Source: Escherichia phage cardinal. Taken from it: a stretch of 64,000 nt of DNA. Every line of letters starts with the position of its first letter. Position 1 is the first letter of the stretch. Position numbers and translations under genes: made by a program. Below, piece after piece: positions 59,539-64,000 of this stretch. The notes beneath the pieces were generated by a model. That model was given only the letters and a program-made list of their open reading frames with translations. It ran no database searches and was not told the DNA's origin. The stretch lies in the sequence record PQ567651.1; one strand, 5' to 3'.

Positions 59539-60936
59539 TTACACCTCCTTATTGTATACTAATTTGCCACCATATTGTGTAACAATTTTTTGAAGATTTT
59601 CCAAATCAGAAACACTTACTGTTTCTGTATGACCATCTTTCAACTCTCTTGCCGTTAAAATACCAGTTTTTAATTTTTTCTTTATAGCTCTTTCAGCAGC
59701 CTTACATTGTTTCACTGTGCTAAAATCATATAAACAAATACGCTCCATAGGAAACATATTACAGCTATTTTGACGTTTTAATCGACTATCACTATTTTTA
59801 GCTATACCAAACTTAAGAGCAACTATAATATTATCATCCTTAACAATATTAATATATAACTGCTGCTGACTATGACCAGCACACATAGGACAACCTCGAC
59901 CGTGGCTTAATAAGGCATTAGCCCTCCCTGTCTGTTCCCCATGCACAAGACAAAGATATTTAAACTTACCGTGACTTCTAGACGGTTTACCGATCCAACC
60001 TACCCAGACATACCCTTTCCCTTCTACTTCCTTTTTTACCCTGTAGGTAATCTGATTTTCTGTATAGTGATAACTAGTTGCACAGCGGCAAGGGATACTT
60101 CCTTGTTTTAGGGGCCACCCTTTAGAGTAAAATTTACCATCGCAAACACCTGCTTGAACATATTCATCATGGGAGCAAACAGGACACTCAACCATCCATA
60201 CTGCATCACGCTTGTTACGTTTCCCTGTATTGGTGAAGATAGTGCCTTCCTTAAATTTCCCTGTAGAAAAGAAATCTGCAATATGTTGATCGTCGGACAT
60301 TGTTAGTGCCTTCCTTGTATTCTCATACCTACATAAAGGACAACCATAACCACGTTTAAAATTGTTAATACTTGTAGTATCCCATTTATAACCACAGTGA
60401 CACAACAAATCAAGTTTTGTTTTATGTCCTTTCCATTTTCCAACGTACCCTAACACCTGATACCCCTTCTTCTGTGCTATCTCTTCCAAGATCGGTAATT
60501 CTGTTTCCCATGCTAACGGTTTATTACTTGCACATGCCGGACAACCACGTCCATTCCTAAAATCAATAATGTTTGTGGTGTTCCACTCTCCATGTTTAGG
60601 GCAAATTATGCGAATTTTTGTTCGCACACCTCGCCACTCCTCGGCAAGACCTATAAAAGTAAACCCTCTTTCTTTAGCAATATCAACAAGGGAGATACAT
60701 TCCTTTTCTTCTGTTACTTTTCTATGACCATTGCAATCGGAGCAACATTTACCGCCTTTAGTTTTAAATACATTGATTATGGTACTTTCCCACTCTCCAT
60801 GATCAGAGCAAGATAGCTTAAGCCTAGTCCTGCTACCTTTCCATTCACCAACATAACCCAAGATTTGAATATTGTGATTTTTAGCAAGGGGTATTAATTC
60901 TTCTTTATATTGTTCCCATGATTTTAGTGCTACCAT
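59539..60936 (-). CDS. protein with five N-terminal Cys-rich (zinc-ribbon-like) repeats and C-terminal T5orf172/GIY-YIG-like domain
   Basis: repeats of LGYVGEWKG..TKL.L.C..HGEW.TT.IN.F..G.GCP.C; C-terminal LYINIV...FGIAKNSDSRLKRQ. Confidence 0.5.
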   Translation of the reverse strand: MVALKSWEQYKEELIPLAKNHNIQILGYVGEWKGSRTRLKLSCSDHGEWESTIINVFKTKGGKCCSDCNGHRKVTEEKECISLVDIAKERGFTFIGLAEEWRGVRTKIRIICPKHGEWNTTNIIDFRNGRGCPACASNKPLAWETELPILEEIAQKKGYQVLGYVGKWKGHKTKLDLLCHCGYKWDTTSINNFKRGYGCPLCRYENTRKALTMSDDQHIADFFSTGKFKEGTIFTNTGKRNKRDAVWMVECPVCSHDEYVQAGVCDGKFYSKGWPLKQGSIPCRCATSYHYTENQITYRVKKEVEGKGYVWVGWIGKPSRSHGKFKYLCLVHGEQTGRANALLSHGRGCPMCAGHSQQQLYINIVKDDNIIVALKFGIAKNSDSRLKRQNSCNMFPMERICLYDFSTVKQCKAAERAIKKKLKTGILTARELKDGHTETVSVSDLENLQKIVTQYGGKLVYNKEV

Positions 60937-61010: not shown

Positions 61011-62045
61011 TTAAAACACACTTGCCAAAGTTGCACCATTGGTGATAGTTGGTTCCAGAACAATACGGAAAGAATCTTCTGGATCATCACTAAACACAAC
61101 GATTTTACCGCCTGTAATAAGGTCTGCTTTCATTTTTGTCGCATTCAATGGAATTCGAGCATCTCCTTCATCATCAAAAACCACGTAAGAGCTATTAGCA
61201 AGGGCTTCTTTAGAGTCTGCATCACTTGGAGATGACAAGTACACGTCTAGTGTGCACGAACCACCTAAAAAGATTGCAGGTGTGAAGTTATGCCAACTAG
61301 ATACCCAGCTAACTTTCTGAAGTTTTCCATTAATAACAACGCTGCTGATATCCCATTTATTACCACCACCTAAAGAAACACCCATCATAGAGATGCATTC
61401 TTTAAAGGATAAATCAGGGTAGAAATTAAGTTCTTCTACTATACCTTGGATCACATCAAAGGACAACTCTAAACTTACATCCCAAAGTCTTTGGAAATTA
61501 TCAAAGTGTGCTTTGTTATCCAGGTTTTTATCTAAATAGTCAATCATAGTTTCTAGTGAGATTTTATCATAATTAAAATTATAAAACACACGACTAGGAC
61601 GATTTAAAAAGAATTCAGAGATAAAACCACTGTTTTTAGTCAGAATAAACAGTTTATTACCACTGCCAGTACCATCTAACAAAGTGAGAAGTGCTTCTTG
61701 ATCTTGTTTCTTCTCATACACTTTATCAAACTCGTCAAAAATAATCACTGCTTTGTCGGTGATCTTGCTAATAAGTTCAATGAAATTAGCATCGCTGTAG
61801 GCTTGAGTAACCATAATAGTTGGAATACCTTCTTCTACAAGGTCACGACTAATGAGTTTGGCTAACATAGTTTTACCACTGCCCTTAGTTCCTGTCAGGA
61901 GCAAACCTGTATTTTTACCTTGTGCACTCCGGCGATGGAATGTACGAATAACGTGATTTGCTCGTTTTTCTGTTTCACCATACAGAACATCCGGTACACC
62001 TGTTAGATTACCACGGCTTAAAAAAATAATTGCCAAGGGGATCAC
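61011..62045 (-). CDS. AAA+/P-loop ATPase; N-terminus may extend to ATG near 62140 through a frameshift at an A7/T7 run
   Basis: Walker A GTKGSGKTML, Walker B VIIFDEFD; GTG start lacks RBS while upstream ATG has AAGGGG RBS in +1 frame. Confidence 0.6.
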   Translation of the reverse strand: MIPLAIIFLSRGNLTGVPDVLYGETEKRANHVIRTFHRRSAQGKNTGLLLTGTKGSGKTMLAKLISRDLVEEGIPTIMVTQAYSDANFIELISKITDKAVIIFDEFDKVYEKKQDQEALLTLLDGTGSGNKLFILTKNSGFISEFFLNRPSRVFYNFNYDKISLETMIDYLDKNLDNKAHFDNFQRLWDVSLELSFDVIQGIVEELNFYPDLSFKECISMMGVSLGGGNKWDISSVVINGKLQKVSWVSSWHNFTPAIFLGGSCTLDVYLSSPSDADSKEALANSSYVVFDDEGDARIPLNATKMKADLITGGKIVVFSDDPEDSFRIVLEPTITNGATLASVF

Positions 62046-62151
62046 GACTAACAGTATAGAATCCAGGTGGAAGATAGTTAGATTCCACGCCCATATCTTT
62101 ATTTACACTTACAATATCACCATAAATCGTGTATTTCATTTTAAACCCCTT

Positions 62152-62589
62152 TTATTTTTGTTGAGATGAACGAATTAAATCAGCAGCAAATTCAATCAGA
62201 TACACTTTTGGTGCAATAATGATTTTTAGCCAATCAAAATTCGAAAAGAAAATAACAAATCCTAAAAAGAAAAAGAAAGCACAGACAACAAGACCAACAA
62301 TAGGTAAAGCAGATACTTCACCATAGCGATCTCGTGACCACAGGCATTCTTTATCTTTAATTGCTTTTACGAGGTTCCGTACAGCAATAAAAGTAATAAA
62401 CATAAAGCAAATACTAAAAAGTTGCCATAAACCTGCGGATACTGCTTTCCACAATAACAATTGATGGATTACTTCTGGAATTTGTTGTTTTCCAAACTCC
62501 ACAACATCACTCATTGTTTGAATAGTGACGTTAACCATGTTCAGAAGTACATCCGTTGCTTTATCTGCGATTGCGTTTGTTTTACTCAT
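62152..62589 (-). CDS. hypothetical membrane protein
   Basis: two or three hydrophobic helices. Confidence 0.5.
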   Translation of the reverse strand: MSKTNAIADKATDVLLNMVNVTIQTMSDVVEFGKQQIPEVIHQLLLWKAVSAGLWQLFSICFMFITFIAVRNLVKAIKDKECLWSRDRYGEVSALPIVGLVVCAFFFFLGFVIFFSNFDWLKIIIAPKVYLIEFAADLIRSSQQK

Positions 62590-62603
62590 TCTTTATTCCT
62601 CAC

Positions 62604-62778
62604 TTACCTTTTAAGGAAACCAATCATAATGAAGAACCACATCCAGGCAGGAGAGATAATAAAGCCAAAGAAACCGCAAATAACCGCTTTCTTAATCTCT
62701 TCCAGACAACCCACCAGGAAAAGACCGAGTGAGACTACAATCCAGATAGCCATAAATACTGTAACAAAGAAACTCATA
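62604..62778 (-). CDS. small membrane protein
   Basis: 58 aa hydrophobic ORF with GGGAGAAAGG RBS. Confidence 0.35.
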
Positions 62779-62797
62779 CCTTTCTCCCGTCTGTATT

Positions 62798-63049
62798 TTA
62801 AAATTCAACCACCACTTTATCGAGGTGCTCTGCTTCAACTTGATCTAATGTTAACACCTCAACTAAACCCTTGTCAATACCTAATTTAATAACATCAACA
62901 TATTGTCCAAACAGATCCTGAATAGATATCTTGTGTTCGACAACAACCACTACTTCATTCCCTTTTGTGAATTCTCTCCATACACGTCCACATTTGAAAA
63001 TAAAGTCTGCTTCATCTGCTGTTATCATTTTAGGTTTGATACTTAACAT
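62798..63049 (-). CDS. hypothetical protein
   Basis: track ORF. Confidence 0.5.
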   Translation of the reverse strand: MLSIKPKMITADEADFIFKCGRVWREFTKGNEVVVVVEHKISIQDLFGQYVDVIKLGIDKGLVEVLTLDQVEAEHLDKVVVEF

Positions 63050-63600
63050 TATAAAACTCCGTATTCCGGCTCAAAATCATATTTTTCACAAATCATGTCC
63101 CAGCGTTCGTTGCCGAAGCTGCGACCACAAATTGCATCGTAAGCATAATGCTCTGCTAACCATTTTACAACAGTGTCTACATCGTTATCAAGTGGTAATC
63201 TGAATTCTTTGCCATATCGCATACGAAGAACAAATTCATCCCCTTCTTCAAACAAGTGCATATGGCTTTTTGCATAAGAAGCCAAGTTGAAAAAAGATAC
63301 CTCTTCCCAGCATTCTTTTTCCACTGCAATCCCGTGATCAACAACTAAAGCACCGATAACGCGATACATAATAGGGCTAAACAGTGCGCTTGAGCTAGGC
63401 TGCTCTTCAACTACAGACCAACCTGTTCCCTGCCAAATTTCATTTTTGAACCATTGTTGCATGTCATTCCCTTTTTCATCTACAAGGGATCGGTTACGCA
63501 TTTCAAACCATTCTCCTTCGCAAAAGTATTTATGTTTAACACGTTTGCCTTTTAACATTGCTTCTTTGGCTTCTATCCAAGTCAGATCGGTGTTTTGCAT
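63049..63600 (-). CDS. DUF2829-like (Tad2-fold-like) N-terminal domain fused to unknown C-terminal domain
   Basis: ATG after GGAGATAAACGA; TWIEAKEAMLKGKRVKH...EIWQGTGWSVVEE resembles DUF2829 consensus. Confidence 0.4.
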   Translation of the reverse strand: MQNTDLTWIEAKEAMLKGKRVKHKYFCEGEWFEMRNRSLVDEKGNDMQQWFKNEIWQGTGWSVVEEQPSSSALFSPIMYRVIGALVVDHGIAVEKECWEEVSFFNLASYAKSHMHLFEEGDEFVLRMRYGKEFRLPLDNDVDTVVKWLAEHYAYDAICGRSFGNERWDMICEKYDFEPEYGVL

Positions 63601-63719
63601 TCGTTTATCTCCTCTCATTTGTGTATGCATTAAGATTAGCACAATAAAACAGTATGTCAATACTTGATCTGAAATTAATTTCTGGTATTCTGTGTGTATC
63701 GTAACAAAAGAGGTTAGAT

Positions 63720-64000
63720 ATGAACATCACACTAGCAACTAAGAATATTACAGAAACTTTTGATGGTTTTGGCATTATTATTGCTGTTCATGGGCATAAC
63801 GAAAAATGGTTAGCCTCTTTTGAAGAGGACAAAGAACGCAATGTACGTTTGAATGCACCAATCAAAGTTTTACACCAGGTAGGTGAGAATAAGAAACAAT
63901 GGAGATCATACAAAGAGTGGAACATTACGAACGAGTTAATACACAAACTTGACAAAGTGATAAACATGTTCGACAATGCACCAAGCAGTGCAAAACGTGT
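63720..64000 (+). CDS. hypothetical protein, 5' part; continues past window end
   Basis: ATG after AAGAGG, open to window end; absent from track because no stop in window. Confidence 0.4.
   Translation, partial: MNITLATKNITETFDGFGIIIAVHGHNEKWLASFEEDKERNVRLNAPIKVLHQVGENKKQWRSYKEWNITNELIHKLDKVINMFDNAPSSAKR

Follow-up and report, generated by a model that had tools for sequence, protein, structure and literature searches.

Tad2-type sponges are a main route by which phages disarm signalling immunity (e.g. Thoeris, CBASS and Pycsar). In SPO1 Tad2 the residues W25 and W73 sandwich the ligand, N26 and D79 make polar contacts to which S76 and T78 also contribute, and a beta2-alpha2-beta3 insert builds a V-shaped dimer (10.1101/2023.05.01.538930). 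Other homologues of Tad2 bind varied ligands in different pockets (10.1101/2025.08.24.671296), and the DUF2829 protein AcrIIA7/HgmTad2 (8KBI, 9KZR) binds tracrRNA as well as, in HgmTad2, cyclic nucleotides. Tad2 also occurs fused to Acb4 or to PF21825/Sequestin, combinations that are common and recur many times (Tal et al. 2025, 10.1101/2025.07.12.664507). Here we analyze a minus-strand gene in a stretch of 64,000 nucleotides of Escherichia phage cardinal DNA (PQ567651.1; the whole stretch is called the window below). Its product resembles the Tad2-Acb4 and Tad2-Sequestin proteins in having a Tad2-type domain, a short linker and a second small phage domain that is usually standalone. However, the partner is neither PF13876 (Acb4) nor PF21825 but phrog_11295, which has no Pfam match, and the fusion is found in a single lineage, on a recently inverted segment, whereas the described fusions have recurred repeatedly.

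The window comes from a phi92-like E. coli myovirus (Justusliebigvirus, Stephanstirmvirinae), and over positions 62000-64000 it shares 98-99% identity with about 30 genomes of this kind. Judged by sequence, the gene is the orthologue of gp217 of Escherichia phage phi92: the protein is 98% identical to Phi92_gp217, which is annotated as a 'conserved hypothetical protein', and a literature search retrieved no paper pairing phi92 with gp217. The two genes differ by 6 synonymous and 4 non-synonymous codons. All four amino-acid changes fall at non-conserved positions, and every family-conserved residue is retained in both domains. The full-length protein was present in 31 records of a phage genome collection, all of the phi92 type and with 95-99% protein identity. 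Neither a second copy nor a canonical Tad2 was found elsewhere in the window. The program-made open reading frame (ORF) is longer than the gene as we define it and reaches a TTG at 63660 that is itself part of a TTGACA hexamer resembling a -35 element; the ATG at 63600 was taken as the start because it agrees with the annotated Phi92_gp217 start and with the N-termini of the relatives.

Homologues were collected by an exhaustive HMMER search of 1.84 billion cluster representatives (E <= 1e-3). This gave 45 matches, about 32 of them to the N-terminal domain only and about 10 to the C-terminal domain only, and no other representative combined both domains. Two of the 45 matches, P0003 (5,991 amino acids (aa), with 15 weak stretches) and P0020 (521 aa, a tandem repeat), were discarded on inspection as artefacts of summed repeat scores. 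A word-indexed search with the single protein as query recovered the phi92 cluster alone, and with the N-domain profile it recovered only 5 proteins. In PHROGs, aa 4-65 match positions 2-63 of the 64 of phrog_3474 (E 1.5e-25) and aa 1-69 match positions 4-72 of the 147 of phrog_22208 (E 1.3e-26). Relatives of the N-terminal domain are mostly standalone proteins of 59-67 aa, and some relatives carry unrelated C-terminal tails. Altogether 376 phage genome records match the protein, most of them over the N-terminal domain only, and they include phages of Klebsiella, Escherichia, Salmonella, Citrobacter and Erwinia. Among the sites occupied by these relatives are the position directly upstream of a T7-like RNA polymerase gene and the small-ORF array between nrd and gene 55 of a T4-like phage. 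Such early or accessory positions are consistent with a role in host takeover or anti-defence, without proving it. Other architectures were also seen. P0017 (175 aa) has the domain twice in tandem, P0043 (232 aa) has it at the C-terminus, and in P0041 a Cys-rich segment resembling a zinc finger comes after it.

The N-terminal domain is a shortened, divergent relative of Tad2/DUF2829 and not a Pfam-level member of DUF2829. When PF11195, whose gathering score is 25 bits, was scanned against each of the 32 relatives it was the family most often matched (6/32, best E 0.0028), yet all these matches lay below threshold, that of P0019 reaching 14.5 bits. The profile built from the 32-sequence alignment, compared with the sequences in the PDB, ranked SptTad2 (8WJD) first with an E of 0.055, over a stretch that spans the N-terminal helix and the C-terminal ...DW-x-V-x-E; the whole protein, compared with the sequences of solved structures, gave chance-level matches only. 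A profile-profile comparison of the domain with three Tad2 sequences taken from the PDB gave a probability of 80-82% (E 1e-5). A full-length MAFFT alignment misplaced the sequences that hold only one of the domains; the two domains were modelled separately. The AlphaFold2 model of aa 1-71, made from the family alignment without templates, has a predicted local distance difference test score (pLDDT) of 86.6 and a predicted template modelling score (pTM) of 0.71. It contains a helix at residues 8-16 and strands at 20-23, 32-35, 38-41 and 61-64, that is, the N-terminal alpha-helix packed on an antiparallel beta-sheet that makes up the Tad2 core fold. We consider the assignment to the Tad2 fold sound, and remote homology to Tad2 is likely. 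The original prediction, made from the sequence alone, had placed at 63049-63600 a gene with a DUF2829-like N-terminal domain. The gene is indeed there, as a 552-nt minus-strand ORF that encodes the quoted sequence and has a ribosome-binding site and the start of Phi92_gp217, and the domain claim survived the comparison of the predicted fold with DUF2829 that had been set beforehand as its refutation test. In the portion of Table S1 of 10.1101/2025.08.24.671296 available to this analysis, a motif search for this subfamily among the published Tad2 proteins found nothing. Atd1, the anti-TIR gene known in these genera, is a MazG-like enzyme unrelated to this locus.

Several landmarks are common to the domain and Tad2 (SPO1 Tad2 8SME, ModTad2 9EIB, SptTad2 8WJD). 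Both have an Ala in alpha1 followed by G-K-x-V, an aromatic residue three positions beyond the basic one in beta1 and, at the end, (D/G)-W-x-[IV]-[IV]-E, and both are small phage proteins, or parts of them, encoded among accessory genes. On the other hand, Tad2 proteins have 86-104 aa against about 62-66 in the domain, which also lacks the NGKG loop of Tad2. The residue equivalences given here come from hhalign and the hidden Markov model alignment, not from a superposed complex. They place F26 at the position of SPO1 Tad2 W25, W50 at that of W73 and G60-W61 at that of the terminal D-W. F26 is invariant in the family (32/32), W50 is found in 23 of the 32 members and W61 in 30. Aligned in this way, the aromatic pair that sandwiches the ligand is present in the domain as F26 and W50.

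As for the second half of the protein, aa 73-182 match positions 1-109 of the 110 of phrog_11295 (E 2.9e-50, PHROGs), and a profile search returned 34 relatives, mostly standalone proteins of 104-114 aa. The genes of distant members sit in replication, nucleotide-metabolism and accessory regions of phages, one of them near gp2-like and DNA methyltransferase genes. To judge from this distribution, the domain is an independent and widespread phage domain. The original prediction had described an extension of about 110 aa with no known function; the length and the lack of a known function stand, but the part is not an extension. It had also called the combination an unusual variant, which does not hold for Tad2 fusions in general, common as they are, although phrog_11295 is not among the partners named for them (10.1101/2025.07.12.664507). 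Pfam gave no significant match for the C-terminal domain, and no match to PF13876 or PF21825 in the protein or in 13 relatives of this domain. NCBIfam gave nothing, the domain profile found only chance-level matches among the sequences of solved structures, and a fold search of BFVD returned uncharacterised phage proteins only. In the alignment of 39 sequences K111-S112-H113, R128-Y129, G159-R160 and W167 are near-invariant and N164 is also conserved (numbering of the full protein), a polar, basic and aromatic set that suggests a small-ligand or catalytic site. The domain was modelled with high confidence, and its predicted fold is similar to the type III secretion class I chaperones (AvrPphF ORF1 1S28, ExsC, SpcS, Spa15, SycT) and to the YbjN family (AmyR 5FR7, DR_1245 4H5B), with identities of 7-22% over both groups. 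It differs from the CesT and YbjN families in having no Pfam match to either. It also differs from the secretion chaperones in being confined to phages, all contexts examined being phage genomes or contigs with no association with a secretion system or effector. We know of no counterpart of the K-S-H / R-Y / G-R-x-x-x-N / W set in the secretion chaperone or YbjN families.

Comparison with related phages suggests how the two domains came together. In VEcB (same genus), ESCO5 (Phapecoctavirus) and Klebsiella phage phi1_175008 (Stephanstirmvirinae) they are encoded by separate genes on opposite strands. There the C-terminal domain is a standalone gene of 111-112 aa on the strand of the operon that runs from gp218 to the ATPase gene, and the N-domain gene is found at a distance of 1-2 kb, with a divergent promoter region between it and a 'MNIT(L/A)(A/S)TK' gene. 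BLASTN showed that a segment of phi92 (L001 4946-6102) is inverted with respect to VEcB (L003 1527-2397) and ESCO5 (L002 1047-2012), while the flanks are collinear with 94-98% identity. Relative to all three phages the gene order in this segment of about 1.2 kb is inverted. Besides the beginning of gp217 it holds the promoter region, the MNITLATK gene and a MKIVH-like gene. The match with ESCO5 runs to L001 6195, at about codon 65 of gp217, and the CTG Leu at aa 73 occupies the position of the ATG start in the standalone C-domain genes. Since three lineages share the split arrangement and elsewhere the domains nearly always occur alone, the fusion, seen only in phi92-type phages, is most simply taken as derived, and we infer that it was created by the inversion. 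Codons 1-65 (or about 66) of a Tad2-like gene would thus have been joined to the start of a phrog_11295 gene through the linker QPSSSAL. For the stretch encoding aa 66-101 neither VEcB nor ESCO5 offers a close nucleotide match, so that a more divergent allele may have been involved. Searches for inverted repeats at the breakpoints found only short, probably chance matches away from the junctions.

In ESCO5 and phi1_175008 the N-terminal domain ends in a Lys-rich tail (...KGKGHNKLKKGKKK), which is gone in the phi92-type fusion, where the phrog_11295 domain stands instead; the composition of the tail suggests binding to nucleic acid or to membranes. The genes concerned (ESCO5 L002 807-1250 and phi1_175008 L010 1148-1597, both minus) encode the Tad2-like domain followed by a tail of about 80 aa with the Lys-rich ending (YKGKGHNKLKKGKKK). 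VEcB carries a degenerate remnant of the Tad2-like gene (L003 1449-1628, minus; 59 aa) in which an internal deletion removes beta3 and the W50 region, and the domain seems dispensable in the VEcB-type lineage of Justusliebigvirus.

We propose that the gp217 orthologue is an accessory gene whose product has two independently folding modules joined by the inversion. The protein would oligomerise, and module 1 (aa 1-66) would form aromatic-lined pockets between protomers that could bind a small nucleotide-derived host signal or metabolite, with a specificity probably other than that of the gcADPR (glyco-cyclic ADP-ribose)-binding Tad2. Module 2 (aa 74-183) would act independently, as the partners in Tad2-Acb4 and Tad2-Sequestin do, by binding a phosphate-bearing ligand or a host protein. 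The working model is thus a bifunctional accessory protein with a possible role in anti-defence, analogous to Tad2-Acb4 or Tad2-Sequestin (10.1101/2025.07.12.664507), and a sponge function is plausible. We give this reading, mechanism included, a probability of roughly 40%; the architecture, the folds and the inverted order, taken alone, are highly probable. The gene is probably expressed early and is a reasonable lead for a new anti-defence protein.

Several observations weigh against this reading. PF11195 does not match the protein even at E <= 10. The polar contacts that SPO1 Tad2 makes with the phosphates and hydroxyls of gcADPR through N26 and D79, and also through S76, are not conserved: N26 is aligned to C27 (Thr in the family consensus), D79 to I55 (variable in the family) and S76 to N53 (Gly in the consensus). 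The beta2-alpha2-beta3 insert with its alpha2 is absent as well; the model has a tight beta-hairpin (residues 32-41) in its place and the extended hhalign alignment a gap of about 23 residues. With the N26 and D79 equivalents and the alpha2 insert missing, the protein may be unable to form the Tad2 tetramer with its pockets, and a 'gcADPR sponge' does not follow from the fold. As far as the alignment can tell, the aromatic walls of the pocket are kept, whereas the domain has lost the polar chemistry specific for gcADPR together with one of the two interfaces of the oligomer, and specificity for gcADPR looks unlikely. A dimeric mini-sponge is nevertheless conceivable by comparison with Tad2, because the Tad2 pocket forms between protomers joined along alpha1, and alpha1 is retained here. 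The fold alone does not fix the function either, since AcrIIA7 binds tracrRNA with a Tad2 fold (PMC13133391) and the ligands of Tad2 homologues are varied. The Lys-rich tail of the domain in related phages would suit nucleic-acid binding better than a sponge. Guilt by fusion is a weak argument here because the fusion is confined to one close lineage, the 31 records mentioned above. The codon differences from phi92 do not establish selection on the fusion, and among the members of either family examined none is fused to a known sponge domain.

The alternative that survives best is that the N-terminal domain uses its Tad2 fold in another way, binding nucleic acid, as AcrIIA7 does with tracrRNA, or a host protein, so that the product would be a general host-takeover factor and not a sponge. 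The loss of the polar contacts and of alpha2 agrees with this, as does the Lys-rich tail of the Phapecoctavirus and Klebsiella Stephanstirmvirinae proteins. Yet nothing in the family is more conserved than the pair of aromatic residues at the positions of the pocket, with F26 invariant and W50 and W61 highly conserved, and the domain is acidic (pI 5.4, net charge -2.4), poorly suited to nucleic-acid binding on its own. AcrIIA7, in contrast, is a tetramer with a basic groove and possesses extra head and insert regions, and the domain studied here is shorter. To our knowledge E. coli has no type II CRISPR-Cas9 system, which speaks against an AcrIIA7-like role. This alternative is possible but unlikely.

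A second explanation gives the leading part to the C-terminal domain. It would be an adaptor or a chaperone-like module that holds on to a protein of the host or the phage, with the Tad2-like part serving only for oligomerisation or being a passenger of the rearrangement. The domain is indeed commoner as a standalone gene, is found fused to differing N-terminal parts (e.g. the Zn-ribbon-like P0058, and P0031/P0054) and is tightly coupled to its downstream gene within Stephanstirmvirinae. However, secretion chaperones grip their effectors by hydrophobic patches, and the conserved residues of this domain (K, S, H, R, Y, R, N, W) look more like a small-ligand or catalytic site. Outside Stephanstirmvirinae the downstream gene is not conserved; no conserved downstream partner was found, the genes that follow the domain in distant phages being unrelated. 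We regard this explanation as improbable. That the inversion merely left behind a neutral or decaying fusion with no function of its own is very improbable indeed: its restriction to one shallow lineage, the clearly degenerate remnant in the VEcB-type sister lineage, where the domain seems dispensable, and an uninformative 6 to 4 ratio of synonymous to non-synonymous differences would allow it, but the ORF is intact in all 31 records with a good ribosome-binding site and a promoter-like site, the family-conserved residues of both domains are all kept, both domains are predicted with high confidence and the four amino-acid differences from phi92 avoid conserved positions.

A bolder form of the two-module reading holds that both families are unrecognised anti-defence modules. 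The domain of about 62 aa (phrog_3474/phrog_22208) would then be a minimal, dimer-only sponge with aromatic-lined pockets and a new specificity, and phrog_11295 a new ligand-binding or ligand-cleaving family that has a chaperone-like sandwich as its scaffold and acts through the K-S-H / R-Y / G-R / W cluster. This is a long shot, but if it were true phi92 gp217 would be a natural two-in-one inhibitor of immune signals. The main value of the locus is as a lead, namely to a Tad2-like subfamily below the PF11195 gathering score and to an uncharacterised partner domain. Surveys detect Tad2-type sponges through PF11195 or HHpred matches, and the shortened subfamily falls under that score. A subfamily of this kind in hundreds of phage genomes would widen the known limits of the fold in sequence and in size and reveal which of its parts can be dispensed with. 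The fusion also marks phrog_11295 as a candidate for testing, by the reasoning from a sponge to its partner that led to Sequestin. In addition, its apparent origin in an inversion that spans a divergent promoter illustrates clearly how multi-domain accessory proteins are assembled in phages. Finally, phi92-like and phAPEC8-like phages are therapy candidates, and their anti-defence repertoire bears on host range.

Table 1. Positions of the gp217 orthologue, its parts and its adjacent features in the window.
Feature	Position	Strand	Remarks
Putative sigma-70 promoter	63633..63660	minus	TTGACA (63660-63655), 16-nt spacer ending TGc, TAATCT (63638-63633); identified by eye
Ribosome-binding site GAGGAG	63609..63614	minus	8 nt upstream of ATG; AGGAG annotated as ribosome-binding site in phi92
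gp217 orthologue, coding sequence	63600..63049	minus	183 aa + stop, 552 nt; ATG at 63600, stop TAA at 63051-63049
N-terminal domain, aa 1-66	63403..63600	minus	Minimal Tad2-like (DUF2829-like) fold
Linker, aa 67-73 (QPSSSAL)	63382..63402	minus	Residues 68-71 have low pLDDT; aligned with standalone MFS... proteins
C-terminal domain, aa 74-183	63052..63381	minus	phrog_11295 family; alpha-beta5-alpha-alpha sandwich
Downstream gene, phi92 gp218 homologue	62798..63049	minus	phrog_4868, 83 aa; ATG overlaps the gp217 stop (TAATG)

The gp217 orthologue is the first gene of its unit and follows a divergent intergenic region of 120 bp (63601-63720). The TTGACA-16-TGcTAATCT arrangement is a plausible extended -10 sigma-70 promoter for it. 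Against this assignment, a consensus promoter scan did not call the site, because its -10 hexamer agrees with the consensus at only 3/6 positions. The intergenic region contains promoter-like elements placed back to back, the one just described pointing towards gp217 and a TTGATC-16-TATTCT pointing towards the MNITLATK gene, and the inversion with respect to VEcB and ESCO5 takes in the whole of this region. The TAATG overlap suggests translational coupling of the gene with the gp218 homologue. In ESCO5, VEcB and phi1_175008 the standalone C-domain gene is followed by this overlap too, so that the pairing of the C-terminal domain with gp218 appears older than the fusion.

Beyond the gp218 homologue there are two small membrane-type ORFs and then an AAA ATPase gene. 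The latter, a homologue of phi92 gp221 (phrog_2376; 61011-62139, minus), is broken into two ORFs (62008-62139 and 61011-62045) by one extra T in a T-run near 62020-62027 (T7 here, T6 in phi92), at about nucleotide 113 of the gene. The extra T may reflect an error of sequencing, slippage or a true frameshift mutation. Farther along, 59539-60936 (minus) encodes a protein of 465 aa that resembles homing endonucleases (phrog_681, 'endonuclease') and has a T5orf172 domain at its C-terminus as well as five CapR-homology repeats. This region is just 87% identical to phi92, against about 97% in its flanks, which suggests a mobile or fast-evolving insert.

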